Part shown: piece by piece, positions 5,190 through 54,158 of the stretch
Numbering within the stretch: position 1 is the stretch's first letter
How the letters are laid out: every line of letters begins with the position of its first letter
The notes under the pieces: generated by a model
What the model was told of the DNA's origin: nothing
What the model saw: only the letters and a program-made list of their open reading frames with translations
The model's database searches: none
Program-made: the position numbers and the translations under genes
Source of the DNA: Chitinophaga pinensis
GTDB taxonomy: Bacteria > Bacteroidota > Bacteroidia > UKL13-3
Direction: 5' to 3'
Length of the DNA: 64,000 nucleotides
NCBI GenBank assembly: GCA_945870425.1
Contig: CAMBSD010000009.1
Span: 50,180-114,179, forward strand

Positions 5190-7448
5190 ATGAAAAATAA
5201 CGATTTAAAATCCATGATGAGCAAGAAGCTTGCATTAATGCTTCAACTTATTCTGCTATCATTCACAACAGTTTTGGCTCAATCTTGCCTTCCTAAATTT
5301 GACTATTACAAATCAGCCAAAAACATCGTATTTGTAAACCAATCAACAACTCCATTTGGTTTAGGCAACTATATTTGGAATTTTGGTGATGGCACTCCCT
5401 TAACTATTAACAACGAACATCAATTACACCACAAGTATGCCCAAACAGGCAGTTATAAAGTATGTCTTATAGATAGTTTTTGCCCAACAAATACTATGTT
5501 TTGCGATAGCATAAAAGTGGAAAATAGTAAAGAGGTTCAGGCTAGGTTTACTCATCAGGATTTCGGCAATGGATCTTTTATTTTCTTAAACTCAAGCAGT
5601 GCATCTTTATATCCAATTATTAGTTATCAGTGGGATTTTGGTGATGGTAACTTTAGTAATGACAGGGATGTAAAACACAATCATCACTCATCAGGACAAT
5701 ATATTGTTAGTCTGACAGTTTTAGATAGTGGTAATAATTTCGATATTTTTTACGACACAGTGAATACTTCAGTAATAGCTCCCTGCTATGCCGACTTTAA
5801 TTTTCAATATGTAAACAACCAGTTTGAATTTCAAAATCTTAGTTCTAGCCCAGACAGCATAGTAAGTTACCAATGGTATTTTGGAGATGCATCGAATGTT
5901 AATACGCAAGCCAATCCAACACATAGTTATAATGCTATTGGAAATTATACAGTTACTTTGGTAATGAAAAGCGCAACATGCAGCGACACCATTCAAAAAA
6001 CAATTTCTCAACCTGACACAGCATTATGCAAAATCAATTTAAGCAGCGCAATAAATTTCCAAAAAGTATTATTTACGGCTAAGTCAAATTCACCTGACCC
6101 CATTTTGGATAAATTCATAATTGATTATGGAGATAATAACCAAGAATTTATGGAAACCAATAGCATTTCACATATTTATAATGATACTGGGGTGTATAGA
6201 GTTTGCGTTCAGTCGTTTGTTAATCTTTGTGGGGTTGATCTTATTCAATGTGATACCATAAGAATTTCAAGTCTAACAGCCATTTGCAAAGCTGGTTTCG
6301 AGCTTTATGATTACGAATACACAGCTTCACTATACAATTCATCAATTGCTTATGGAAGTTCGGCACCTACTAACATAACCATTAATTGGGGAGATGGATT
6401 GATTTATTCGGGAACAGACAGTTTAGGCGTATTTAACCATACTTATGCCAATGAAGGTAGTTATAATGTTACTTTAACAATGAATAATTTAGGGGGCTGT
6501 AGTGACTCATTAACTAAAATTGTAAGTGTTGGACCAAACTATGTGCTAAGCGGAAAAATAACACAAGGAGGTTTACCTGCTTATTATGCTGGGGTATATA
6601 TTTATAGTTACGACTCAACATCTGGCTTATTATACAAAAGCACTTATACAAGCACGGACAATAACGGAAATTATGAGATAAAACTCAAAAAAGGTTATTA
6701 TCTGGTACAAGCGGATTTTGCTTTTGATCCTTTCAATAATGGATTTTATTTACCAACCTATTATAAAAATAAATTGAATTGGGATTTGGCAGATGTTCTT
6801 TATCTTCAAGCCAACCGAAGTGGCATTGATATTGACCTAATACCATATATTTATGACTCTACAGGCAACGGTAGCATTTCAGGTTTTGTTAAATATGGGA
6901 CGGGTGTGGTTGATCAAAATGGACCAATACAAGAAGGTAAACCTGCAGAAAAAATGTTAGTTTATTTAGTAGATGCAAGTGGCAAAACTGTAGCATATAC
7001 ACACACAAATACAGAAGGCCTTTTTGATTTCGGAAAAGTACCAATGGGTAATTACAAAGTATGGGGCGAAATGGCTGGAAAGCAAACTTTACCTGCCCAA
7101 GCCTCTATTAATAGTGCTGTAAATAATGTTTCTGGCATCAAAATAATTATTGGTAAAAACAGTTTGACAAGTTCAATTGGCCAGACAGCTAATATCATTG
7201 AACCTATTGAAGCCTCGATATATCCAAATCCAAGCAAAGGTCTTTTGAATATAGAATGTGCTAGCAAAAATTTAAGTTCAGTTCAGGTTTTTGATATAAC
7301 AGGACAACTAATACTTGAAAGCACTAATGAAAATGAAAATTCAAAAATGAGTTTAGATATTTCAAATAATAAAAATGGTTTGTATATAATTAAAATCAAT
7401 TCGGTTGAGGGAAACAGCATCATCAAAAAAGTTCTTAAACAAGACTAA
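5190..7448 (+). CDS. PKD-domain surface protein with T9SS type-A C-terminal sorting domain
   Basis: Signal peptide. Five PKD-like units (WNFGDGTP, WDFGDGNFS, WYFGDASN, DYGDNN, NWGDG). C-terminal 'IYPNPSKGLLNIE...VFDITGQLILES...NGLYIIKINSVEGNSIIKKVLKQD'. Confidence 0.8.
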   Translation: MKNNDLKSMMSKKLALMLQLILLSFTTVLAQSCLPKFDYYKSAKNIVFVNQSTTPFGLGNYIWNFGDGTPLTINNEHQLHHKYAQTGSYKVCLIDSFCPTNTMFCDSIKVENSKEVQARFTHQDFGNGSFIFLNSSSASLYPIISYQWDFGDGNFSNDRDVKHNHHSSGQYIVSLTVLDSGNNFDIFYDTVNTSVIAPCYADFNFQYVNNQFEFQNLSSSPDSIVSYQWYFGDASNVNTQANPTHSYNAIGNYTVTLVMKSATCSDTIQKTISQPDTALCKINLSSAINFQKVLFTAKSNSPDPILDKFIIDYGDNNQEFMETNSISHIYNDTGVYRVCVQSFVNLCGVDLIQCDTIRISSLTAICKAGFELYDYEYTASLYNSSIAYGSSAPTNITINWGDGLIYSGTDSLGVFNHTYANEGSYNVTLTMNNLGGCSDSLTKIVSVGPNYVLSGKITQGGLPAYYAGVYIYSYDSTSGLLYKSTYTSTDNNGNYEIKLKKGYYLVQADFAFDPFNNGFYLPTYYKNKLNWDLADVLYLQANRSGIDIDLIPYIYDSTGNGSISGFVKYGTGVVDQNGPIQEGKPAEKMLVYLVDASGKTVAYTHTNTEGLFDFGKVPMGNYKVWGEMAGKQTLPAQASINSAVNNVSGIKIIIGKNSLTSSIGQTANIIEPIEASIYPNPSKGLLNIECASKNLSSVQVFDITGQLILESTNENENSKMSLDISNNKNGLYIIKINSVEGNSIIKKVLKQD

Positions 7449-15403: not shown

Positions 15404-17611
15404 TTAGTTTAATACTACTTTTTGAGTCAATGTATTTTCTCCCACCATCATTTTGATGAAGTAAATACCACTATTTAGGTTCAAGTCAGATTTACTAATC
15501 TGTAACTCATGCTTACCTTCTGATTGCATGCCATTACTAAGTGTAGCAATTTGTTTACCTGCAATATCAAAAATAGCCACTTCAACATTTTCTTTAGTAT
15601 TTAAGCTATAGGACATAATAGCAGAAGAATTGAAAGGGTTTGGATATAAATTGAAACCTAATTGTTCTTTTAATAAGTCGTTGTTGATACTTGAAGCTAA
15701 ACCAACTTGCACTTCATCCAGGTAGAAGTTATTTCCACCTTCGTATGCCAATTCAATTCTGAATTTAACATTATTGAGTGCTGCACCAGTTGGCAATAAA
15801 GCACCATCCAATTTAACTTCTTTCCATTTGCTTTGATCAGCAGGAACAAAATAACTTGTATATGGAATAGGAGAAGTAGCTGAACTACCATTGGTTGCCG
15901 TAAATAATGCAGCACCTGAAACTACCTTTTTAGCTGTCCATGATTTACCACAATCAGTAGAATAAGAAACTCTTAACACATCAGGAGATGCAGTAATTGA
16001 CAATGGTGAGTATGTACCTTGTGCAAATGCATACTTGAATTTGAAGTATGGGGCAGCAGAACCTGACAAGTTGAATGATGGGGAAATAAAATAGAAACTT
16101 GTTTGAATAGCACTTGGATTAACAGGCAACATCATGCTATAATTTCCAGAGTATGGAACAGGTGTTCTAACCCAAGTTAATCTAGTTGAAGCATTTTCGT
16201 TTTCAAAATACCAACCATTTGATTGGAAGTCATTTAAATAGTCCCAATCTGCTGTATAAGCGCTTTTAGGCAAAGCAGCAGTAGCAGGTAATATGGTAAT
16301 GTAATTTTTATAAACAGTATCTCTTGAACCTGCTGGTCCTGTAACTTTCAATTTTACATCATATGTTCCCGGATTGGCATAAGTAATAGCAGGTGTAGTT
16401 GTGCTAAGCGCAGAACTGGTTGAAGCCGTGTATGTATTGGGTGTACCTCCGTCAAAAGTCCATTCCGCAGAAGTTATAGTACCATTATACGAAGTTTGAC
16501 GGAAAGTAAAAGAGTTATTTGCACATGCAGTAGTTGATGTTGAAACATTGTTTAAAGTAATACCAAATGATGGGATAGGTGTGCAAGGAGTTGCGGCATC
16601 TAAAACACCTGTTCTAACTAAATTATCAGCTGACCATAATTGTCTTCTATAGTAATCTAATGAATAGAACATTCTAGCTCTTTGCTCTAATGTAAACATT
16701 TTACTAGAACAAGGACCGTCAAAATAATCCATAATATTTTCTTGTTGATCTGGTAAATCAGGATTATCATTTGAACAAGTATTATAAAGAGGTAAACCAC
16801 ATTTATTGCCTCTACCTGTGTTCACTTGATTTGTGCTGTAAGTAAAATAAGTTGGAGGAGTATCAAAAATATTATCACCATTGATATCACAACTATCCCC
16901 TTCAAACGGATGAGATAATCCAAACCAATGACCAGCTTCATGAGCACCTGTTCCATCAGCTATGAATTGACCAGCAACTAGCAATATACCATCCGTATTA
17001 GCGGGACTGAAGCCAACAGGAAATTGGGCAAAACCACCCACTTGTTTTCCTCCAGACAGAACCGAACTCGCCACCCAAATATTTAGGTATCTTTTGGTAT
17101 CCCATGAAATCAATTTTTTAATTTCATTAGTTGCATTTGAAGTTTGCTCCGTTTGAGTGCGGGTGATACCTGTGGTACAATTTCCCTGAGGATCTTTTTT
17201 TGCTAATCTGAATTCTATGTCACTGCAATCGGCTACGAGATGCTGAAAAATTGGACGAACACTAGCTGCTTTATTACCTTTATAAAAATCGTTCATAAGA
17301 TTAATAGTAGCCTGCACTTGCGCATCTGAAAGATTTTCTGAGCCATAGTTGTGCATAATATGTATTACAACTGGAATGATATATTTGGGCTGTGCACTTT
17401 TTTTAAGAATGTTAGATTTTATTTCATCTTTATGCATTTCGCGGTATTGAGACCAACCTTGTTCAAATTGGTTTCTTTGTTGAATGTACTCATCTGGGTT
17501 GAGGTCTCTCAACGACTGATTATACTGTGTGGTTCCGCATTTAGGAGTTTGTGCACTGGCACCAAGGCAGAACACAATTAAAGCACTTAGAGTAATAATT
17601 ATATTTTTCAT
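15404..17611 (-). CDS. metzincin (M43/pappalysin-like) zinc metalloprotease with T9SS C-terminal sorting domain
   Basis: Signal peptide. 'HEAGHWFGLSHPFEGDSCD' (HExxHxxGxxH). C-terminal 'LYPNPFNSSAIMSYSL...VAIFDIAGKQIATL...GIYFIKMMVGENTLTQKVVLN'. Confidence 0.8.
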   Translation of the reverse strand: MKNIIITLSALIVFCLGASAQTPKCGTTQYNQSLRDLNPDEYIQQRNQFEQGWSQYREMHKDEIKSNILKKSAQPKYIIPVVIHIMHNYGSENLSDAQVQATINLMNDFYKGNKAASVRPIFQHLVADCSDIEFRLAKKDPQGNCTTGITRTQTEQTSNATNEIKKLISWDTKRYLNIWVASSVLSGGKQVGGFAQFPVGFSPANTDGILLVAGQFIADGTGAHEAGHWFGLSHPFEGDSCDINGDNIFDTPPTYFTYSTNQVNTGRGNKCGLPLYNTCSNDNPDLPDQQENIMDYFDGPCSSKMFTLEQRARMFYSLDYYRRQLWSADNLVRTGVLDAATPCTPIPSFGITLNNVSTSTTACANNSFTFRQTSYNGTITSAEWTFDGGTPNTYTASTSSALSTTTPAITYANPGTYDVKLKVTGPAGSRDTVYKNYITILPATAALPKSAYTADWDYLNDFQSNGWYFENENASTRLTWVRTPVPYSGNYSMMLPVNPSAIQTSFYFISPSFNLSGSAAPYFKFKYAFAQGTYSPLSITASPDVLRVSYSTDCGKSWTAKKVVSGAALFTATNGSSATSPIPYTSYFVPADQSKWKEVKLDGALLPTGAALNNVKFRIELAYEGGNNFYLDEVQVGLASSINNDLLKEQLGFNLYPNPFNSSAIMSYSLNTKENVEVAIFDIAGKQIATLSNGMQSEGKHELQISKSDLNLNSGIYFIKMMVGENTLTQKVVLN

Positions 17612-31516: not shown

Positions 31517-34500
31517 ATGAAAAGAATCTTTACACTCACATTTTCATTATTGATATTGTTTTGTAATTCTACAATGGCTCAAAATGCCATACAAGCAGGT
31601 AACAGACAATATCCAATACCTAACAGGAATCACACTAAAAGTTCTCCAATTTTCACAGGATTGAACAAAACTAGCACTTGCTCGGCTGATACCATTGAAT
31701 ATACTATCTACAAAGCAACTGCACTAAATACCATCAACATAAATTCAACCACAAGCGCTGGAACGGGATACCAGTGGTTTCCTGCACCACAAGCCATTAC
31801 AGTTAGTGGATTCAACTTTTTTGCTTTCCTAAGCAGTTTGGCTGGTATCCAAAGCCAATCTGTAACACTTAGTATTTACAATGCAGGTATTGATTCAATG
31901 CCAAGTGGTGCTGCTCTTAGAAGTGTTACCATGAATATTGACACTGTTTTGGGTAATGGAAGTTTAGGAGCCATACTCAAAAGAGCTATTTTCACTACGC
32001 CTGCCACCATCACTAATCCAAATGGTTATGTATTAGCAATTGAAAATACAAGTGGTAATCAACTAAATGTAGTTACTAATAGTTGGAATAATTTGGATGG
32101 CGGAAGTGAATGGTGTGCATCTGTCAAATTATTTGGAACAAATACAAGATCATATAATATAAATATTGGCGGCACTCCTTATGATGCCGACTTTTTAATG
32201 TTTCCAATCGTTACATATTCACTTACAGCAGATTTTACTCACACACCAGCTTGTTTTACACCAGGTAACCCAGTTACTTTCACCAATACATCATCAGCAA
32301 TTAATAATAGCAGATTTTATAATCTAAGAAAACTTTTTGGAAATTATCCTCTTACTTACACATGGGACTTTGGTAATAGCACTGGAGGAAATGCGGTGGA
32401 TACGAATGTAATTTATGCTTCAGGTGGAACTTATAACGTAAAATTAACCGACTCCATAGAAGGTTATTATAGATATTGCACAGATAATAAATCTTTAGGC
32501 ATCAGCTCCTCTGCGCCTGCGCCAAATGCTGGAGGAGGAGGAAGCTACTGTATAGGTTCAACATTGAGTTTGACTTGTGCCACTGTGACTGGATCTACTT
32601 ACTATTGGACTGGGCCTAATGGCTATACATCCACCGCTCAAAATCCTACAAGAACAAACTTTAGTAGTTTAATGGCCGGACAATATGATGTTATGACCAT
32701 TAATGGAACTTGTTCATCGGCTGTCGCAAGTGTAATTGTTGCAGCCGTTTTACCACCAATCGCTACAAGCAATACACCCGTTTGTTTTGGTCAAACATTA
32801 AACCTAACAGCGTCATTAGTGCCAGGTGGCACCTATGCATGGACTGGTCCAAATGGATTTACGTCAAGTGCGCAAAGTCCTAATCGAACAAATTTGACTG
32901 CGGCTGATACCGGATTATACATCTTAAATGTTTCCTTGCCTGGATGTTCTTTCAACCCAGTCACAACTAGAGTTGCTGGATTGGCTATACCTGCAACACC
33001 AACCGTTGGCAATGCTCAAAGTTTATGTGAAGGTGAAGGTCTATCATTAAGCGCTCAAGGAACCTATGTAAATCCTACATTCAATTGGAATGGGCCAAAC
33101 AACTATTCTTCTAATATACAAAATCCAAGCATTAGTGCTACAACACTTAGCAATTCTGGCACATATAATGTTACTGTTACGGTGAATGGATGTACATCAT
33201 CTAGCGCAAGCACCAATGTTACAATCAATCCTAAACCAAGTGCACCAACAGTAGGAAGCAATGGTGCTTTGTGTGCTGGTCAAACTTTAAGTTTATCTGC
33301 AAGTGCTATAGCCAACGCAACTTATAATTGGTCTGGCCCAAATAATTTTACTTCAACACAACAAAATCCAAGCAGAATCAGCATGACAACTGCTGACGCA
33401 GGTTTGTATTCAGTAATCGCAACTGTAAATGGTTGTAGCTCTGTATCCGCTAGCATTACAATCAGTGTAAGTGCATCTGCACCTTCACCAACAGCATCAA
33501 GTAATTCACCTGTATGTGCAGGACAATCATTAACCTTATTTGCTTCAAATGTAGCAGGAGCCAATTATTCATGGACTGGACCAAACGGCTTTACTTCTAA
33601 TGCACAAAATCCAGTAATTACCAATGTAACTTCAGCTGGTGCTGGTGCATATAGCGTTACTGCAGCTACTGCCACTTGCGGAACTTCTCCAGCTTCTACC
33701 GTAAATGTTACAATTAATGCTTTAACAATTACACCTATTGCATCAAATGCAGGCCCTGCATGCGAAGGCTCATCAACTAGTTTAAGCATTACTACCATCA
33801 ATGGAGCAACCTATGGATGGGTTGGGCCAAATGCCTACGTTTCGGCTAGTCAAAATCCTAATTTGAACAATGTAACCAAAGCAATGGCTGGAACTTATAC
33901 TGTAACCATCAGCACTTCACAATGCGGTGCGGTTGGTTCATATTCTACAATATTAGCAGTAAAACAAAAACCTGTTGTTACCTCGGTATTTAATAACTCC
34001 CCACTATGTGCAGGCGATACTTTATAAGTTTCTGTTAACGGAACAAATACTAGCAGCAGTGCCACCTTTGCATGGACAGGACCAAATAGCTACGCATCAA
34101 GTGGAAAATCAATTGTAATAAATAATGTTAGTTCAGCTAATGATGGTACCTATTCGGTTACTGCGACAGATTCAGGTTGTACATCTGCCTCTTTCAGCAC
34201 TGGTTTTATTGTTAAACCAAAACCAACAGCACCTGTAAGTTCAAACAGTTCACCGCAATGCGAAGGTACTAAACTTGATTTAACTGCATCATTAATTAGT
34301 AATGCTACTTATGTATGGTCAGGACCAAATAATTTCACTAGCACACAGCGCAACCCGAGCATCAATGCCATAGCTAAAGCTGGCGAAGGTACCTACAAAG
34401 TATACTGTGTGGTGAATGGATGTAAATCGGTTGAAGAGGCTACCAATGTAGTCATTAATATAAAACCGGCATCACCTGTTATTTCTAACAACAGCCCTTA

Positions 34501-35461
34501 CTGCGAGCGTAGCAACGTGAGCCTAACAGTGCCTGCGGTTTCGGGTGCTACTTATAGCTGGACAGGACCAGTCAACTTTACTTCAACCAATCAAAACGTT
34601 TCATTGATTTCGGCTATTCCAGTTCAATCAGGAACCTACAGCTGTGTAATGACTGTGGCAGGCTGTGTAAGCGATGCAGGTACTACTGAATTGTTAGTTA
34701 CTCCATTGCCAACTGCTCCTACCCTATCAAGTTTCCCTGTTAACAAATTATGTGCTGGAGATAGCTTGCAACTATTCGCTTCTTTTACTGATTTAGCAAC
34801 ATACAGTTGGACTGGCCCAGCAGGATTCGTTTCGGCATTGCGCAATCCAACCATCAAAAATACCAACCAAGCTTATTCAGGAACGTATTCTGTAGCCATA
34901 ACCAAAGGTGCCTGTACTTCGCAACCAGCTAATATTACCATCACCGTGAACCCAACTCCAAATACAGGCAATATCTCAGGATTGGCTAATGTATTTAAAT
35001 TAGATACGGTTTCATACATGGTGAATGGATTACAAGGATCGTCATTCGATTGGAATGTAACGGGTGCTAATATAACGTTGGGTGCGGGTTCAAACAAAGT
35101 ACAAGTAAAATGGTTGACTGTGGGCACTGAAACCATTAAAGTAAAAGAAACATCTGACCAAGGTTGTTTGGGTGTTGAAAAATCATTTGCAGTAAACGTA
35201 GTACCTACAACAAGTGTGAATGAATTGCATGCCAATGCTGATGTGGTAGTATATCCAAACCCAATGAATGAATCCTTAACTGTGAGTATGTTGAGCAATC
35301 ACAAATTGCAATCAGCCACTATTTATGATTTAATTGGAAATGAAATCATCACTAGCAATAAATCAGATATAGATGTAAGTCATTTGCAAAATGGTGTTTA
35401 CGTTATCAGAATAAAAGATAATAATGGAAATACTTATAGCCAAAAAGTAATTAAAAACTAA
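31517..35461 (+). pseudogene. giant T9SS (type-A) surface adhesin with at least 13 tandem ~80-aa Ig-like repeats, interrupted by one in-frame TAA at 34028-34030
   Basis: A single frame is open from 31517 to 35461 except TAA at 34028. The track splits it into 31517..34027 and 34409..35461 (GTG). Repeats 'C.G..L.L.A.....(Y/F).W(S/T)GPN(G/N)(F/Y)(T/S)S..QNP'. C-terminal 'VYPNPMNESLTVS...IYDLIGNEII...NGVYVIRIKDNNGNTYSQKVIKN'. Confidence 0.75.
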
Positions 35462-43201: not shown

Positions 43202-43618
43202 TTAATTGTTAGTATCAGAATTTACTGAATTTTGCTTTGGGTGGTATTTGGGATTAAACAATAGTTTATATTGCATACTTTGACTTCCAAAATTTATAAG
43301 TAAGCCTAGCGGAAAATCATAAGCAACAGTGTAGTTTTTAGCTTGTGCAATATGAACATTTTCCAAGTTTACTAAGGCTTTTATTTCAACTACTATTTTA
43401 CCTTCCACAATAAAGTCAGCTCTTCTGATTCCAACTTCCATGTCTTCGTAATACACGGTTTGTTCTTGCTCCCTTTGGAAAACCAATCCTTGTTTTTTAA
43501 ATTCAATGGCAAGACATCGCTGGTATATTACCTCTTGGAAACCTGGCCCCATAATATTATGTACCTTCATAGCACAACCAATTATTTTATAAGTTAACTC
43601 ATCTTTTTCCATGTACAC
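43202..43618 (-). CDS. GxxExxY family protein (PD-(D/E)XK-like)
   Basis: 'GPGFQEVIYQ' GxxExxY signature. Confidence 0.8.
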   Translation of the reverse strand: MYMEKDELTYKIIGCAMKVHNIMGPGFQEVIYQRCLAIEFKKQGLVFQREQEQTVYYEDMEVGIRRADFIVEGKIVVEIKALVNLENVHIAQAKNYTVAYDFPLGLLINFGSQSMQYKLLFNPKYHPKQNSVNSDTNN

Positions 43619-43727
43619 ATAGTTCAGTTAATTATCTCGTTATGCAAATTCTGATTCAGACCTTCTTCACCCAATCTTTAGAGGATATTTGGTATTACTT
43701 CTTTTTTTATTCAACTGTCGAGGTCAG

Positions 43728-44522
43728 TTAAGGCCTAACCGCCAGCACACCGTTATTGCTATTAATATCCAATAAAGGATAATCATTAAAATCAACTGAA
43801 GCATCTCCGTTTAGGTCATTCGCATCATATCCCAATATGCCATCATTGCTTGCTATATCAAGTGCAGGGTAATCATTAAAATCTACGGAACCATCTTGTG
43901 TAATGTCGCCACTATACATCGCAAAAACACCATTACCCATATTTGATAAGTTATCGCCAAAAGCTTTGTTAGCTGCATTGCTAAAATTATAAGATGCCCC
44001 CAAAGCAGTAATATTTACTGGACTTGCACTCCAAGTTTCAATGCTATTGCGATGTTTTACTACAATAAAGTATGCATTGCCAATAGCACTTGCAGGAATC
44101 AATACCTTAGCTGTTCCATCTGTATTTACAAGGGCATTACAAGAATAAATAGAATCATAAGGTGCATGGCTGCTGTGTAGTTTAACCTGTATGATGTCCG
44201 ACACTGTTTTTTCAGTTAATACACCTGGGGTATTAAACAAACTTTGCATTTTTGAATTGCCCACATAATAGCCTTCAATAAAAGCTGTAAGGTTTATATA
44301 CACACCCGTATCAATGCTTTCAGGCTGCTGATAACCTTGTGTAAGCATACTGGTATGATTACCCAAAGTAGCATTAAAGGTTTCACCTATGGTGGCACTT
44401 AGGTTAATATTTCCATTACTGAAATATGAACCTGCCACAGGTTGAGCCTTGCGGGTGATAGTTTGCGAGTATGAAACTTTAACAATAATAATTGATAAAA
44501 TGAATAGTATATTTTTTTTCAT
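43728..44522 (-). CDS. secreted protein with duplicated C-terminal dockerin-like Ca-binding repeats
   Basis: Signal peptide ending SYSQ. C-terminal 'GDITQDGSVDFNDYPALDIA' and 'NDLNGDASVDFNDYPLLDIN' (DxNxDGxVDxxDY F-hand pair). Confidence 0.55.
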   Translation of the reverse strand: MKKNILFILSIIIVKVSYSQTITRKAQPVAGSYFSNGNINLSATIGETFNATLGNHTSMLTQGYQQPESIDTGVYINLTAFIEGYYVGNSKMQSLFNTPGVLTEKTVSDIIQVKLHSSHAPYDSIYSCNALVNTDGTAKVLIPASAIGNAYFIVVKHRNSIETWSASPVNITALGASYNFSNAANKAFGDNLSNMGNGVFAMYSGDITQDGSVDFNDYPALDIASNDGILGYDANDLNGDASVDFNDYPLLDINSNNGVLAVRP

Positions 44523-44534
44523 AATAAGATTAGT

Positions 44535-44918
44535 TTATTGAATAATGTTGTACTCAATTATAGAAACAACATAACTTCGTCCTGCACCAGCCCAACCTAA
44601 ATAATCTCCGGATTGTAACCAAATTGTTTCTTTAATTACAGATAATGAAATTACATTGTTATTACCATAATTTATTTCTCTCGCAACATTGCTATAACAA
44701 GCATTATTTATTGTTAAACAACCTGATAAATTATTACTAAAATCGCGCCCTCCACTAATGCCCATAGATTCAATTTTCCATACTTTAACGCTAGGCACTG
44801 TATCGAATGTAGTAGTTGTAATACCAGTAAAAGTTCTTACCCTATTAAACTGCAAATTCCCTTGCGCATACGAAGCCATTGAAAATAATAGAATCGCAAT
44901 TGTTATTGTTTTTTTCAT
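44535..44918 (-). CDS. small secreted protein, paralog of 44930..45400
   Basis: Start set at 'MKKTITIAILLFSMASYAQGNLQFNRV'. Shares N-terminal (about 85% nt identity) and C-terminal (IIEYNII / AIEFNIV) segments with the neighbour. Confidence 0.55.
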   Translation of the reverse strand: MKKTITIAILLFSMASYAQGNLQFNRVRTFTGITTTTFDTVPSVKVWKIESMGISGGRDFSNNLSGCLTINNACYSNVAREINYGNNNVISLSVIKETIWLQSGDYLGWAGAGRSYVVSIIEYNIIQ

Positions 44919-44929
44919 ATTTTTTATAA

Positions 44930-45400
44930 TTATGGAACGATGTTGAATTCTATAGCTGAAATTAACATACCTGTGCCTTGTACAATTGAAATAACTTCTC
45001 CTGCCTTTAACCATACTGACGGTGCACCAAAACCACCCAATACTGGGGTATCCAATGTTGCTGGACATTGGCTGCACTGACCTTGAGGTGCAATAGTACT
45101 ATTATTAAGCTGGGTTAAATTATATTTTAACCCAGCTACTGAAGCAATTTCAAATGTATTGTGGGTATAATAACAATAATCACTACCCGATTGCCATATA
45201 CAATTAGTATATGGCAATTTAACTGTTAAATTATTCCCAGATCCTGTTGAAGTTATCTTCAAAACTTTCCCAGCAGGAACAGTATAAGTATCTCCGTTTT
45301 TTATATTTAAAACCTGATTAAACTGTAAATTACCTTGCGCATATGAAGCCATTGAAAACAGCAGCATTGCTATGGTTATAATTTTTTTCATGTTATTCAT
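44930..45400 (-). CDS. small secreted protein, paralog of 44535..44918
   Basis: 'MKKIITIAMLLFSMASYAQGNLQFNQV...', Cys-containing middle region. Confidence 0.55.
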   Translation of the reverse strand: MNNMKKIITIAMLLFSMASYAQGNLQFNQVLNIKNGDTYTVPAGKVLKITSTGSGNNLTVKLPYTNCIWQSGSDYCYYTHNTFEIASVAGLKYNLTQLNNSTIAPQGQCSQCPATLDTPVLGGFGAPSVWLKAGEVISIVQGTGMLISAIEFNIVP

Positions 45401-45402
45401 AA

Positions 45403-45852
45403 TTAAAATCCATCAGATAAATAAAGCATGGTATTGGCATTAGAGCCTTTGCTTGTGCCAGAAAATATGGAATAAGGAACACTCATCAATTGCTGCACAC
45501 CCATAAATGAGTAGTTGTTACCTGTAGCAGTGGTGTCTAATTCAACTTGCAAAAATTTTGAATTATTGCCCCAATTTACACCTGCCAAAGTTCCTGTAAT
45601 GGCCGTTCCCATGCCCACATTTAGGTTAAACATACCCAAGGCATTGGTGGTGGTGGTATGGGTTTCTTTAAAAGCAACCGTGCCTGTAGCCACACTATCC
45701 AAAATACTAAAGCGTACTTTAATAGCTGTATTGGTTAGTGCTTGTCCGTTGGCTTTTCTTGCAGCCGCTTGGTAAGGTATGCCAAGCGGTGCTTGGGCAT
45801 ACGTTTTTGCAAATCCTAGAATTGCAATTAATGTGTAGATTATTTTTCTCAT
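45403..45852 (-). CDS. small secreted protein, first gene of the cluster
   Basis: Signal peptide 'MRKIIYTLIAILGFAKTYAQ'. No known motif. Confidence 0.5.
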   Translation of the reverse strand: MRKIIYTLIAILGFAKTYAQAPLGIPYQAAARKANGQALTNTAIKVRFSILDSVATGTVAFKETHTTTTNALGMFNLNVGMGTAITGTLAGVNWGNNSKFLQVELDTTATGNNYSFMGVQQLMSVPYSIFSGTSKGSNANTMLYLSDGF

Positions 45853-45990: not shown

Positions 45991-46362
45991 TTGCACATGC
46001 ACATAGGCTTACGTATTAAGATAGCTAGAATTAGTAAAGGATTTAAACAAGAGGATCTAGCTGAACGGATAAATAAAACCCGTCCCCTCATCTCCAGTAT
46101 TGAACAAACTGGTAAAGTTAATCATTATACCTTGAAGAAAATATGCGAGGTATTAGAAATTGATATAAACGAATTGGAAAACTCGGTGGTTTCTGAACCG
46201 TCTGCGCTGTTTTTAAGTAAGCAGCCTAACTTTAATAGTCTTAATTCCAGAATAAAGGAAATAGAGGAAGATAATAAAAACCTAAGATCGCTTATTTTGG
46301 CTCAATCAGAACTAATAAAAGACCAAAAAGATTTTATCAATAAACAAAAAAAGAATACATAA
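45991..46362 (+). CDS. XRE-family helix-turn-helix transcriptional regulator
   Basis: HTH_3-like 'IGLRIKIARISKGFKQEDLAERINKTRPLISSIEQ', coiled-coil-like tail. Divergent from the secreted-protein cluster. Confidence 0.7.
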   Translation: MHMHIGLRIKIARISKGFKQEDLAERINKTRPLISSIEQTGKVNHYTLKKICEVLEIDINELENSVVSEPSALFLSKQPNFNSLNSRIKEIEEDNKNLRSLILAQSELIKDQKDFINKQKKNT

Positions 46363-51818: not shown

Positions 51819-54071
51819 TTAGTACAACATTACTTTTTTAACGATTGATTTGTTTTCGTTTTCAACCAATACTACATAAACCCCTTTTTGGCTCATGTTT
51901 ACAGCATATGTATCGCTGCTAGTGGTACCTTCGCTTAGCACGCGGCCTAGCATATCGGTTACCGTTACTTTAGCTTTTGATGCATTGTCTAATTGCACCA
52001 CTATTTCACTAGTTTCTTGGTTAGTATAAATTCTAGCAAAATCAGTGTTCAACTCATTCACACCATTAATAATACCTGGCATATAAGTCATATTGGTAAA
52101 GTTGATACCATACACCCACAATGGATTATCAATAAATGGATTTCTGTTTTTCTGAATCGAAGAAATGTATTCATGACGCGCTATTTCTAATTCACTAGGT
52201 GGATCTTGTCGGTGCCATTTCATTAACACAGCAGTATCTTGTGCAAATTTACCACCGCTTAAGCCCCAATTTTGGCTGTAAGCACCATTGTAGCAAGTGG
52301 CCATATAAAACAAGGCACGGGCTAAATCTCCTTTGTGCTCATCGCGTGGTTCCCACACTGTTTTGTTGTTGGCATCTTTACCTAATTTTCCATATCCTGA
52401 AGGAGAAGTAGAGGTAAGGGTTACCACTTCACCAAAAGCATTGTTTGATCTAGTTAGGTTGGCATTGATTTGGTCGGTAGGAAACAAATGGTGCTGATCA
52501 TTATATTCAGGAAAATCTTTTCCATTAGGTGCTTGTGGCCACGTATTAGGATCCATATTGCTAGGCATCCAGCTTTGAGCGAATGTATGTTCTCTTGTCA
52601 ATGTTCCTGTTGAGCTTGATGCATTCCACCAAACAAATGGCTCAGAATAAACATAAGGCATATTGGTATACACGCAATACACGACTTTCTTACCACCAGT
52701 GGTATCTTTAGCCAACCAATTGTTTATTAATGTAGTGGTATAATTGCTATAAAAAATTGTATCGTGCGTATTGATTTTAGCTGAAAGCTCCGTTAAGAAA
52801 CTTGCCTTTCTTGGATCAAGACTTGCATAGTAGCTACCCGCATTTGAACCAGTAGTAGTTACAACCCCAGTCATAGGACTAGTGATTAAATAATTTTCGA
52901 AACTAGCAGGGCCATTGAAAGGAAATACAGCATAATGGTATACAGAATTAGCCAAAACATAAGTAGGTTTGAAAGTGGTATCAGCACCCACATAAGCCAC
53001 TTGCGCATCACCAATATTATCTCCTTTGCTATAGGTTTGACCATCCACGGGTACTTCATTTACAGCAGCATCATTTTTTCTTAATACCAGATACTTGTCT
53101 GACTTGTTTGCAGGTGGAAAAATATTTACAGAGTAAGTATATGCTTTAACGCCACCAAAAGTAATATTGTTTATTTTTTCGGTTGGTTCGGTAGCTAAAT
53201 TACCACCTATACCATACAACTTGAAGTTGAAAGGATTTTTTTCAGTATCTGAATTGCTAATGGCTAATGTAGCTTTTCTGGAACCTATGCTAGTGGTAGA
53301 AAAATTAACATTGAAGGTAGCTGATGAATTAGCCAATACATAAGCTGGAGCCGCACTCACAGAGAAATCAGCCGCAGCAGTGCCTGTAAAGTTCATACCG
53401 GTGATGAATAAAGTATCTAAGGTACCTTTATTCTCAATGGTAAACTGTGTGCTAGCTGTTTTTCCTATTAATGCAGTGCTACCATTTACCACATCAGCGC
53501 CTGCCAATTTCACATTGATGGTAGCCAAAGGCGATGCAGGTGCGCTAGCCAATGTAACATTATCTAAAGACACGTTTGAACCAGATTGTTTGTCAAGGTA
53601 AAAAAATCTGATATATCTGCTAGTAGATTTCGGGTTATCTGTAATGCTAGCAAATGCATTTGTTAAATCAGCTGCTGTGAAAGTGCGTAAATCAGTCCAT
53701 GTATTTCCATCTGCAGACTCTTGTGTTTTAAAAGTTCCAGCAAACGCAGGCGCTGGAGAAATACCAGTACCTTTAATATAATAACTTAAAGCACCCGGCT
53801 TATCTGTAAACCATATTTTCACATACTCACCTGTTTGGTCTAAGCGACATGCAGCATTGCCATCTTGGCCACTAGCATAGGTAAATCCTAGAACGGAGAT
53901 ATCCAACTTGGTTGACCAGCCTGTTGGGCCCGGATATTCAGGACCTGTAGGATTACTTGATGTAGACCCCGTAGGTGAAGGATTCACAAAGCTCCATGCT
54001 GTAGGCAATGTGGTTTGTGCATAGCTACTTAATGTCACAAAAATTGCCAAAATTGTAATAATTTTTTTCAT
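51819..54071 (-). CDS. secreted endonuclease I family (EndA/NucM/Vvn-like) nuclease with T9SS C-terminal sorting domain
   Basis: Signal peptide 'MKKIITILAIFVTLSSYAQ' (start set here). 'EHTFAQSW', 'DQHHLFP...N.TRSN' Endonuclease I catalytic motifs. C-terminal 'VTVTDMLGRVL...GVYVVLVENENKSIVKKVMLY'. Confidence 0.75.
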   Translation of the reverse strand: MKKIITILAIFVTLSSYAQTTLPTAWSFVNPSPTGSTSSNPTGPEYPGPTGWSTKLDISVLGFTYASGQDGNAACRLDQTGEYVKIWFTDKPGALSYYIKGTGISPAPAFAGTFKTQESADGNTWTDLRTFTAADLTNAFASITDNPKSTSRYIRFFYLDKQSGSNVSLDNVTLASAPASPLATINVKLAGADVVNGSTALIGKTASTQFTIENKGTLDTLFITGMNFTGTAAADFSVSAAPAYVLANSSATFNVNFSTTSIGSRKATLAISNSDTEKNPFNFKLYGIGGNLATEPTEKINNITFGGVKAYTYSVNIFPPANKSDKYLVLRKNDAAVNEVPVDGQTYSKGDNIGDAQVAYVGADTTFKPTYVLANSVYHYAVFPFNGPASFENYLITSPMTGVVTTTGSNAGSYYASLDPRKASFLTELSAKINTHDTIFYSNYTTTLINNWLAKDTTGGKKVVYCVYTNMPYVYSEPFVWWNASSSTGTLTREHTFAQSWMPSNMDPNTWPQAPNGKDFPEYNDQHHLFPTDQINANLTRSNNAFGEVVTLTSTSPSGYGKLGKDANNKTVWEPRDEHKGDLARALFYMATCYNGAYSQNWGLSGGKFAQDTAVLMKWHRQDPPSELEIARHEYISSIQKNRNPFIDNPLWVYGINFTNMTYMPGIINGVNELNTDFARIYTNQETSEIVVQLDNASKAKVTVTDMLGRVLSEGTTSSDTYAVNMSQKGVYVVLVENENKSIVKKVMLY

Positions 54072-54158
54072 ATGTATTTTTATTCGAACCGCAATCTTAC
54101 TAAAATAATTTGATGTATAAATTATCAAAGCATTATTTATGTTTGTTTTTACATAGTT

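Follow-up and report, generated by a model that had tools for sequence, protein, structure and literature searches.

A self-contained gene cassette of Bacteroidota that may encode a MAT-type surface fibre in separate pieces

Results

Four secreted proteins are encoded in a compact, self-contained block

Inspection of the window, that is, the whole 64,000 nt stretch of DNA analysed here, found four co-directional genes, designated A, B, C and D, which are separated by intergenic gaps of 2–12 nt, with gene A lying 880 nt upstream of gene D within one operon-like block (Table 1). Each encoded protein starts with a hydrophobic N-terminal signal peptide that ends in A/S-Q, and these predicted signal peptides fit the 'Q-rule' described for signal peptidase I substrates of Bacteroidetes (PMC5837995). 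The four-gene secreted cluster proposed by an earlier sequence-only reading was thus borne out, as four tightly spaced minus-strand ORFs with signal peptides in all four. Regarding the gene starts, relatives of B begin at its fourth codon, and the 127 aa of C are counted from MKKTIT; the ORF lister prolongs C to an upstream GTG.

Table 1. Genes and protein features of the cassette (positions within the window; residues within the named protein).
Feature	Position (nt)	Strand	Description
Gene A	45403–45852	minus	149 aa; signal peptide, then the base (N-terminal) domain of MAT-type fibres as a stand-alone unit
C-terminal tail of A, GSNANTMLYLSDGF	45406–45447	minus	Conserved ...Y-x-x-DGF-COOH; B-family proteins are proposed to dock here
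Gene B	44930–45400	minus	156 aa; small secreted jelly-roll (B family), a putative exchangeable tip of the fibre
Gene C	44535–44918	minus	127 aa; shorter paralogue of B
Gene D	43728–44522	minus	264 aa; DNterm behind the signal peptide, then beta-sandwich and dockerin-like pair; would serve A as surface adaptor/anchor
DNterm, D residues 20–70	44313–44465	minus	Motif Q.I...V.A.AG.Y.SN....LS.T.GET....L.....LTQGFQQP
Beta-sandwich of D, residues 72–190	43953–44309	minus	Motif KHRNSIETWS; translation checked
Dockerin-like duplicated F-hand pair, D residues 203–256	43755–43916	minus	Profile, Pfam and DNA repeat; translation checked

On a related contig, DNA homology was found to span exactly positions 43721–45814 of the window with 85% identity, and the flanks were unlike. 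Homology limited to this interval suggests that the cassette is self-contained and may move as a unit. In close relatives the A–D genes are kept together, and the genomic contexts of the cassette differ; at one locus (L004) it is found near RteC/HTH_17 genes. An XRE gene with an HTH domain is indeed present in divergent orientation to the cassette (45991–46362), and the cluster had been placed under its control, yet this gene was absent from every related locus checked, and the regulatory link was therefore dropped. GxxExxY and MscS neighbours were sought in all related loci and none was found, and a promoter/terminator scan, by a method ill-suited to Bacteroidota promoters, stayed at background level.

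Gene A resembles the base domain of MAT-type fibres

[quoted passage not shown] A domain of this description was found at the same place in A. Residues 10–86 of A align with model positions 2–79 of NCBIfam NF053851 (Bdello_MAT_N), a subfamily_domain model of Bdellovibrio, at E 8.9e-11 and 41.9 bits, which falls short of the curated cut-off of 60 bits. Across Pfam, NCBIfam and PHROGs, this was the one informative match obtained for A–D. All nine longer A relatives tested matched the same model (27.9–47.3 bits). The A-family HMM matched A itself at 9e-86, and a single-sequence search of A against the PDB gave nothing.

The longer relatives (286–1967 aa) bear collagen, Peptidase_S74, Lcl_C or Kelch parts. 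A itself ends 14 residues past its domain, without a shaft or variable C-terminal tip, and in other A-family members the covalent tips (Lcl_C, S74 fibres) start at exactly the point where A stops. The stand-alone form, together with its tail, is conserved in >20 clusters. As judged from these profile matches and alignments, A corresponds to the base (N-terminal) domain conserved in MAT-type fibres, with shaft and tip missing. The likeness to the described MAT proteins (PMC10769870) extends from the ~130-aa domain, shared by A and its relatives, to the collagen-like shafts of these relatives and to their ends, which are either S74-chaperone or non-S74, including C-type-lectin-like tips, and so correspond to the two MAT subfamilies. 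In contrast to MAT, A comes from Bacteroidota rather than Bdellovibrio and scores under the NF053851 cut-off, it consists of the base domain alone with the presumed tips B and C separately encoded behind their own signal peptides, and the Bacteroidota fibres come with a conserved partner gene of the DNterm family.

The phage-like Peptidase_S74 and collagen repeats on the A relatives, as well as the varied genomic contexts with RteC/HTH_17 genes near one copy, could also be taken to mean that the cluster is a prophage remnant of degraded tail-fibre genes without a cellular role. We consider this extremely unlikely, as Sec signal peptides are found on all four proteins, T9SS CTDs occur in the partner family, and stand-alone A with its tail is so widely conserved. 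A relatives were found on only 2 of 2.9 million viral contigs, and a PHROGs search of A–D gave no significant match, on which grounds a prophage origin was rejected.

DNterm proteins are encoded beside fibre genes

In gene D, which has 437 homologues, the signal peptide is followed by a ~50-aa domain with the signature T-x-G-E ... L-T-Q-G-F-Q-Q-P, designated DNterm, in which residues Q, T, G and QG..Q are invariant (alignment A3). No model in Pfam or NCBIfam covers it, and its AF2 pLDDT in D was 35–41. A DNterm profile retrieved 5869 cluster representatives at E≤1e-3, and most family members are ~160 aa long and end in a T9SS type-A CTD. Among the top 149 DNterm proteins, 100 consist of DNterm plus a T9SS type-A CTD and 23 of DNterm plus DCmod, the latter term denoting the beta-sandwich and dockerin-like pair of D taken together. 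Thus, DNterm precedes a strictly C-terminal DCmod in the branch of D and a T9SS type-A sorting domain in most members of the family.

An A-family gene was found to adjoin the DNterm gene in 58 of 80 metagenome loci sampled through DNterm plus T9SS-CTD proteins, mostly immediately downstream, and in 24 of the 29 loci of that sample that were at least 5 kb long. For short D-type genes, an A-family neighbour was present in 8/9 genome loci, whereas none was found in 69 DNterm-free loci (648 kb; Fisher p 4e-10). When sampling started from A, a DNterm plus CTD gene was found directly upstream at locus L177. None of 56 complete A-family ORFs carried a T9SS CTD or DCmod, and a Rosetta-stone check of the 149 representatives found no DNterm-A fusion protein. 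By profile and neighbourhood, DNterm defines a very large protein family that is encoded beside MAT-like fibre genes throughout Bacteroidota. Because CTD-bearing DNterm proteins adjoin fibre genes, and the fibre genes have no CTD of their own, the link between A and D is assigned to DNterm and not to the dockerin.

The C-terminal module of D contains a dockerin-like pair

The beta-sandwich of D was modelled by AF2 with pLDDT 83–93, and Foldseek against the PDB returned weak transthyretin, Ole e 1 and DUF3823-like matches only (best E 3.7e-3). Behind it, the duplicated Ca-binding segment that had been noticed earlier proved real both in DNA, as a 75% identical direct repeat (43750–43806 / 43840–43896) with 90-nt spacing, and in protein, as a tandem of ~22–30-aa segments whose 12-residue Ca-binding loops follow the dockerin pattern D-x-[DNT]-x-D-G/A-x-V-D-x-x-D (residues 206–217 and 236–247), in which D206, D210, D214, D217, D236, G239, D240, V243, D244 and D247 are invariant among 20 homologues (alignment A1).

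When the D-family profile was searched against the PDB, dockerins were the best matches (5lxv_B, E 5.8e-5; 2vn6_B, 1.1e-4; CelS and others, ranging to 1e-2). In Pfam, Dockerin_1 (PF00404) matched 13/20 D relatives, with a best E of 4.8e-7, and ranked above EF-hand and FG-GAP; thrombospondin-3, the alternative that the sequence-only reading had asked to be weighed, matched none of the 20 family members. The D protein of the window alone had no Pfam match at E≤1 and reached E 1.4 against 5lxv_B, and AF2 predicted only short helices (223–226 and 253–256; pLDDT 54–75) in this part, where a dockerin would have, behind each loop, an F-hand alpha-helix with the residues that touch cohesin. Hence the proposed identity with a dockerin F-hand pair held for the family profile and the Pfam relatives and failed for the window protein taken singly, and the tail is best described as a predicted dockerin-type Ca-binding pair at the profile level, that is, dockerin-like. 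With type I dockerins (PF00404; 5lxv_B, 2vn6_B, 1daq) it shares the two tandem F-hand loops with Asp at 1, 5, 9 and 12, and the repeated use, within one genome, of a duplicated pair as the very C-terminus of diverse proteins. Unlike them, it has a Pro two residues past each loop and only short predicted helices, it is always fused behind a transthyretin-like sandwich, no cohesin partner was found for it, it sits on adhesin-like rather than carbohydrate-active proteins, and the window copy misses the Pfam model. Dockerins have been reported in Bacteroidetes before (PMC6487960).

DCmod ends ≤3 aa from the stop codon in 108/108 copies, and none of 112 DCmod ORFs also bears a T9SS CTD. It is found on >100 other large Bacteroidota proteins, and ~69 of the loci with DCmod contain none of the genes A, B and C; it occurs on adhesin-like proteins, from 260 to >2200 aa long, in which no further CTD is present and whose genomes use T9SS. 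DCmod proteins are encoded, for example, by the cultivable Flavobacterium sp. XGLA_31 and CYK-55 (loci L070 and L079), and the MAG EUL_060 is rich in the module. Within the DNterm family, DCmod replaces Por_Secre_tail.

No T9SS CTD was detected in A–D by Pfam or NCBIfam at E≤1, by TIGR04183, TIGR04131/CHU_C and NF033708, or by a local type-A CTD model, and the local model matched four other ORFs of the window (5190–7448, 15404–17611, 34409–35461 and 51819–54128), so the earlier statement that the cluster differs from its neighbours in this respect holds. Since none of the four proteins has a recognised outer-membrane export signal, their surface location is assumed. Compared with T9SS type-A cargo (TIGR04183 / PF18962), to which most DNterm proteins belong as small members, D agrees with these proteins in its N-terminal domain and its genomic partner, but carries DCmod in place of the CTD, and type A, B or C signals are lacking from all of A–D.

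These features raise the question whether DCmod on its own directs export or sorting, as an additional CTD class of T9SS or of another outer-membrane route, through which D and a complex bound to DNterm would be secreted; the dockerin-like pair would in that case act in recognition or anchoring instead of scaffold assembly. Its strictly C-terminal position, its exclusion of the type-A CTD in close members, its occurrence on CTD-less adhesin-like proteins of T9SS genomes and its taking the place of Por_Secre_tail all speak for such a role, as does the fact that only types A, B and C have been recognised so far in the T9SS literature (PMC10202324), where a dockerin-type CTD or piggy-back secretion was sought and neither was found. 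On the other hand, DCmod is unlike the type A, B or C CTD models, and in the distant DNterm proteins P0324 and P0347 the sandwich lies upstream of a normal T9SS CTD, which shows that the sandwich can be a passenger and weakens the case for DCmod as a pure sorting tag. No conserved shuttle or receptor gene was found among the neighbours of DCmod genes, where only response regulators and sensor-like proteins recur. Moreover, C-terminal placement is usual for dockerins that are no export signals, as those of cellulosomal enzymes. We therefore regard DCmod as a sorting signal in its own right as rather unlikely.

B-family genes accompany stalks that end in DGF

The DGF tail is present in all stand-alone A orthologues, and that of the window was confirmed by translation. 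Across 176 loci and the window, 9/9 ORFs ending in DGF lie directly upstream of B-family genes, and these DGF-ended stalks are of three types, namely A alone, A plus collagen, and PTL_trimer. Conversely, B-family genes were found only downstream of stalk proteins ending in ...DGF, and the family is missing from most DNterm/A loci.

B and C share 64% identity across their first 53 residues (BLASTP, E 2e-15), and the 94-nt 5′ ends of their genes are 82% identical; the B-family HMM match was 4e-31. The AF2 model of B is a beta-sandwich/jelly-roll (pLDDT 87), and in the B family the first and last strands are conserved, the centre is hypervariable, and up to five paralogues stand in tandem. B and C are paralogous secreted small jelly-rolls with constant ends and a variable middle. 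The B-family profile had no match in the PDB, cohesin included, and fold searches found no close structural relative of B among solved structures or viral models; assigning B to a fibre tip is therefore an argument by analogy. The long tail fibres of T2/T6-type phages, in which gp37 carries the separately encoded distal adhesin gp38, provide the analogue: there, the conserved end of a trimeric stalk takes up a receptor-binding protein that is small, variable and translated on its own, as is proposed here for A and B/C. The two systems show no relation in sequence or in detected fold, and they differ in that A–D are Sec-exported cellular proteins for which the docking of B/C is inferred.

In the sequence-only reading, A, B and C had been suggested as cohesin-like partners of the dockerin of D, and a miniature cohesin-dockerin assembly, with A, B and/or C as the receptor of the D tail, would agree with the dockerin-like tail, with the cohesin-like size and jelly-roll sandwich of B, and with the conservation of the four genes together in close relatives. 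The beta-sandwich expected for the small proteins was found in the B model, but no cohesin signal accompanied it: cohesin (PF00963) matched none of A, B and C in Pfam at E≤1, the nine-stranded jelly-roll fold of the cohesin type was not found, and A resembles the MAT N-terminal domain. Nor do the families of A and B follow a dockerin-bearing partner, as both also occur beside CTD-bearing DNterm proteins. A-family genes pair with DNterm proteins bearing either a T9SS CTD or the dockerin module, and B genes track DGF stalks also when the DNterm protein ends in a T9SS CTD, as at locus L091, where a DNterm plus Por_Secre_tail protein takes the role of D and its neighbours are five B paralogues and an A-collagen-DGF protein. 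Together with the >100 DCmod proteins in loci without A, B and C genes, these observations make a cohesin-dockerin assembly very unlikely.

Instead of being tips, B and C might be accessory secreted factors (chaperones, inhibitors/immunity proteins, or independent small adhesins/toxins) that travel with the DGF-tailed stalk genes. B and C have a signal peptide each, the fold is not tied to a tip domain by any structure, solved or viral, and most DNterm/A loci do without the family. The fusion evidence is weak as well: at locus L096 an A domain and a B-like domain (Bfam i-E 1.6e-5) lie in one frame with a stop codon between them, possibly an A-B fusion, conditional on stop-codon read-through. 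Against an accessory role, B genes and the DGF tail co-occur without exception over three stalk types, constant framing strands around a hypervariable centre and up to five tandem paralogues are what would be expected of exchangeable binding modules, and the covalent tips of other A-family members (Lcl_C, S74) begin where A stops. An accessory role thus seems unlikely to us, and tips are the preferred assignment of B and C.

Discussion

Taken together, we propose that the block 43728–45852 is a self-contained, MAT-type modular surface-fibre (adhesin) cassette that is encoded in pieces, with D as the adaptor, A as the base and B/C as the tips, a reading to which we give about an even chance of being right, and in which the links among A–D are based on gene neighbourhood and domain swaps. 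As the fibre has no sorting domain of its own, D is taken to be the adaptor that it is missing. DNterm of D would bind the fibre base domain A, and the complex would be placed or held on the cell surface by the C-terminal module of D. In this module, Ca2+ would be bound by the dockerin-like pair, whose attachment partner would be a surface receptor common to all DCmod proteins rather than A, B or C. B and C would dock onto the DGF tail of A, probably as alternative tips.

A broader version of this model, which we put forward tentatively and hold to be well short of probable, is that DNterm may be the carrier or anchor of CTD-less MAT fibres at the outer membrane, with the T9SS type-A CTD and DCmod interchangeable behind it; that DCmod may be a further sorting/anchoring signal on hundreds of large Bacteroidota adhesins; and that DGF stalks and B jelly-rolls may represent non-covalent tip swapping.

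Two of the elements found here are undescribed in current domain libraries, namely a strictly C-terminal dockerin-containing module on many large surface proteins, which alternates with the type-A sorting domain of T9SS within one family, and a small jelly-roll family tied to the conserved ...DGF stalk end. Should the roles proposed above prove false, the cluster would nonetheless be a clear-cut case of a conserved cassette whose function is unknown. Should they prove true, they would account for the arrival and retention of fibres lacking sorting signals at the surface, and for tip exchange that needs no gene fusion. The DNterm family provides a specific and very widespread partner gene beside MAT-like fibre genes in Bacteroidota, and thereby turns the question of what holds these fibres at the surface into a direct binding experiment.

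Four minus-strand genes form a discrete cassette of secreted proteins

The cluster of secreted proteins picked out by the sequence-only reading was confirmed as a minus-strand cassette of four genes, A, B, C and D, with intergenic gaps of 2-12 nt and, at the start of each protein, a signal peptide with an A/S-Q end, the Bacteroidetes Q-rule pattern of signal peptidase I substrates (PMC5837995). L001, the closest long contig, has the same four genes; its DNA homology to the window was confined to window positions 43721-45814 (85% identity), with unrelated flanks. The four genes therefore constitute a discrete cassette, and the A-B-C-D order is kept in close relatives. Neither Pfam nor NCBIfam matched a T9SS sorting domain in any of A-D, whereas a local model of the type-A T9SS C-terminal sorting domain (CTD), built from 30 CTDs, found one at the end of four other ORFs in the window (i-E 1e-15 to 2e-4). 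This indicates that the host organism uses T9SS, and bears out the proposal that the four proteins are routed unlike other secreted proteins of the window. Three types of CTD, A, B and C, have been described (PMC10202324). The cassette had also been placed under an XRE regulator; this gene lies outside the cassette, and because no homologue of it was found in any related locus, the regulatory link is unsupported. The gene directly after D, of the GxxExxY / PD-(D/E)XK_3 family, is not kept beside the cassette in other loci.

Positions of features in the window and in fetched related loci (L-numbers)
Feature	Sequence	Position	Strand	Remark
Gene A	window	45403-45852	minus	149 aa
Gene B	window	44930-45400	minus	156 aa
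Gene C	window	44535-44918	minus	127 aa from ATG of MKKTIT
Gene D	window	43728-44522	minus	264 aa
N-terminal domain of D (DNterm)	window	44313-44465		D residues 20-70
Direct repeat, tail of D	window	43750-43806 / 43840-43896		57 nt, 75% identical
Palindrome in gene B	window	45108-45137		15 + 15 nt, 93% complementary
XRE-type HTH protein	window	45991-46362	plus	long coiled C-terminal half; divergent from gene A
GxxExxY / PD-(D/E)XK_3 gene	window	43202-43618	minus	TIGR04256, E 7e-38
ORF ending in type-A CTD	window	5190-7448	plus	local CTD model
ORF ending in type-A CTD	window	15404-17611	minus	local CTD model
ORF ending in type-A CTD	window	34409-35461	plus	local CTD model
ORF ending in type-A CTD	window	51819-54128	minus	local CTD model
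Stand-alone A, DGF end, before B-family gene	window, L001, L004-7			
A + collagen protein, DGF end, then five B paralogues	L091/L093			
PTL_trimer protein, ...CDGF end, before B-family gene	L095	5541-5930		130 aa
Two longer PTL_trimer + Fib_succ_major proteins	L095	10108-12399		
Second small secreted family	L091	4942-5238		~100 aa
Second small secreted family	L091	6391-6690		~100 aa
Second small secreted family	L095	6403-6744		~100 aa
A-domain ORF continuing into B-like sequence	L096	402-1304		in-frame stop 936-938
Expanded cassette	L004	1386-12456		

Protein A resembles the base domain of MAT-type fibres

Protein A matched NF053851, the NCBIfam model of the Bdellovibrio MAT fibre N-terminal domain, with an E value of 8.9e-11 and 41.9 bits against a curated cut-off of 60, and the same model was matched by all nine longer A relatives tested. 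MAT fibres are mosaic adhesive trimers known from Bdellovibrio. The N-terminal domain of these fibres resembles no known structure and presumably attaches to a surface element that has yet to be identified; additional kinds of tip domain may be in use in other bacteria (PMC10769870). The nine longer relatives carry collagen repeats, Peptidase_S74, Lcl_C (C-type-lectin-like), Kelch or YadA-like parts, the same S74 / non-S74 architecture as in MAT fibres, while A consists only of the base domain and a 14-residue tail, GSNANTMLYLSDGF, kept in all stand-alone orthologues. Among 56 distinct complete ORFs of A-family fibres, none carried a T9SS CTD or DCmod, the C-terminal module of D (residues 72-264). 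A relative was present in 2 of 2.9 million viral contigs, one of which has a DNterm + CTD gene directly upstream; the A family is cellular.

The N-terminal domain of D is paired with fibre genes

Protein D comprises a signal peptide, DNterm, a sandwich and a dockerin-like pair. DNterm, with the motif ...T.GE...LTQGFQQP, had a pLDDT of 35-41 and is nevertheless conserved over thousands of protein clusters; folding may require a partner, or an alignment of 20 sequences may have been too shallow. A DNterm profile found 5869 proteins at E<=1e-3 among 1.84 billion representatives. The best 149 of these had a modal length of ~160 aa, and 104 matched Pfam Por_Secre_tail; by the local models, 100 combined DNterm with a T9SS CTD, 23 combined it with DCmod and 20 had DNterm only, with a few others. 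All 30 sampled ~160-aa members matched TIGR04183, and no NCBIfam model covered their DNterm. Thus, D belongs to a large family of small proteins, with DCmod in place of their usual type-A CTD.

In the 80 genome loci fetched via DCmod, an A-family gene was found in the flank of 8/9 loci with short DNterm + DCmod proteins, compared with 0/69 loci without DNterm (648 kb; Fisher p 3.8e-10). When metagenome loci were sampled via DNterm + T9SS-CTD proteins, independently of A, an adjacent A-family gene was present in 58/80 and, among those of at least 5 kb, in 24/29, usually immediately downstream of the DNterm + CTD gene, with two or three pairs in a row in some loci. More distant D orthologues (L003, L008-L010) immediately follow a lone A + Lcl_C gene. 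These counts indicate that the conserved functional pair is a DNterm protein and a fibre with a MAT-type base domain, a link that does not depend on the dockerin. Neither the DNterm family nor its fibre pairing was found in the domain libraries or literature searched.

In L004-L007 an A + Lcl_C gene is added, giving an expanded cassette of A, B, a short B-like gene, A + Lcl_C and D; a 983-aa LamG protein ending in DCmod adjoins the cluster, as do RteC and HTH_17 genes, of the kind commonly carried by conjugative elements of Bacteroidota, and a PKD protein of >4300 aa follows.

B-family genes follow proteins with a DGF tail

Proteins B and C are paralogues from a family of 111-206-aa proteins without any Pfam domain, in which nearly invariant first (QGNLQFNQV...VPAGKV.KIES) and last (PIWLKAGE...ISAIEFNIVP) strands enclose a hypervariable centre. 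The AF2 model of B was confident and all-beta (pLDDT 87); the family profile found nothing in the PDB, and Foldseek of B against viral models gave nothing significant. B-family genes are much rarer (0/80 DNterm-sampled loci), and in the fetched loci and the window they occurred only downstream of proteins ending in ...Y-x-x-DGF; conversely, all DGF-ending ORFs in 176 loci and the window (9/9) precede B-family genes. Neither the literature searched nor the domain libraries described this arrangement. In L091 the DNterm protein carries a T9SS CTD, and the B family therefore does not depend on the dockerin either.

In L096, an A-domain ORF is followed, after an in-frame stop, by B-like sequence (YTVPANEH*KILNFIES...FPIWLEP...) weakly matching the B model (i-E 1.6e-5), which we take as no more than a hint; the stop could mark a pseudogene, arise from a sequencing error or be read through. 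The PTL_trimer domain (PF26696) in L095 comes from precomputed Pfam annotation, the local Pfam copy giving no PF26696; the same locus holds a CHU_C protein with a type-B CTD and a PorP/SprF gene. A second small secreted family (...GGGHIIVPQQEIWELDRVFVNGGDAYSIQ...YYIAEMELL...), absent from the window, is interleaved with B paralogues, and the coding sequence of gene B holds a spacer-free palindrome (AGCTGGGTTAAATTA / TATTTTAACCCAGCT).

The dockerin-like tail of D is part of a strictly C-terminal module

The tail of D consists of two copies of the segment D-x-[TN]-x-D-[GA]-x-V-D-F-N-D-Y-P-x-L-D, seen in the DNA as a direct repeat, with acidic loop positions invariant across 20 homologues. The window protein alone fell below Pfam Dockerin_1 (PF00404) and reached E 1.4 against a Ruminococcus dockerin structure, while a profile of the 20 homologues ranked solved dockerins at the top (5lxv_B, 5.8e-5; 2vn6_B, 1.1e-4; then CelS, CelL and others), above EF-hand proteins. 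PF00404 was matched by 13/20 homologues (best E 4.8e-7), against fewer and weaker matches to EF-hand and FG-GAP, and thrombospondin-type-3 repeats, raised as a possible better fit, matched none. AF2 gave the dockerin-like part low confidence (pLDDT 54-75) and short helices only. Judged by sequence, the tail is probably a divergent dockerin-type F-hand pair of borderline membership. Dockerins have been described before, both outside cellulosomes and in Bacteroidetes (PMC6487960). The cohesin-dockerin-type assembly originally suggested is thus supported only in part: its dockerin-like tail stands, but none of A, B or C is supported as a cohesin partner, as both the DNterm-fibre link and the B family are independent of the dockerin.

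The preceding sandwich (residues 72-190) was modelled confidently as transthyretin-like (pLDDT 83-93), with weak fold matches. DCmod recurs at the end of many Bacteroidota proteins of 260 to >2200 aa with fn3, LamG, Cadg, PKD and similar domains, in Chitinophagales, Flavobacteriales and Saprospiraceae, and several copies per genome are possible. In the fetched loci it ended <=3 residues from the stop codon in 108/108 complete copies, and a type-A CTD was found on 0/112 DCmod ORFs and on 32 other ORFs of the same loci; such a strictly C-terminal module that swaps with a T9SS CTD was absent from the literature searched and from the domain libraries. No known outer-membrane signal is present in any of A-D, and DCmod itself could be an outer-membrane export signal, which we consider rather unlikely: two distant DNterm proteins, P0324 (564 aa) and P0347 (862 aa), carry DNterm, a DCmod-like sandwich whose Ca-loop region is degenerate, further domains and a normal type-A CTD, so that the sandwich at least is not C-terminal in all lineages and can be a passenger domain. 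The flanks in L011-L090 revealed no recurrent neighbour gene as a DCmod receptor or shuttle; response regulators lay near DCmod-ended genes in 14 of these loci, and TPR or Y_Y_Y-type sensor proteins in 7-8.

A proposed split surface fibre

The cluster is best classified as a new, split version of a surface fibre whose kind is known, accompanied by a partner family that had not been described. We propose that DNterm binds the fibre base domain and that the small protein, through its C-terminal module (DCmod here, a T9SS CTD in most lineages), would supply surface delivery, anchoring or both, which the fibre lacks. B and C may serve as alternative tips, recruited non-covalently by the DGF tail of A, perhaps in the manner of phage fibres whose distal adhesin is encoded by a gene of its own, and the dockerin-like pair would bind Ca2+ as well as a receptor that all DCmod proteins share. 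What the parts are is on much firmer ground than these predicted interactions, and we give the overall picture of split fibre, DNterm adaptor, B/C tips and DCmod receptor an even chance of being right. With this cluster it becomes possible to test directly how MAT-type fibres are kept at the surface.
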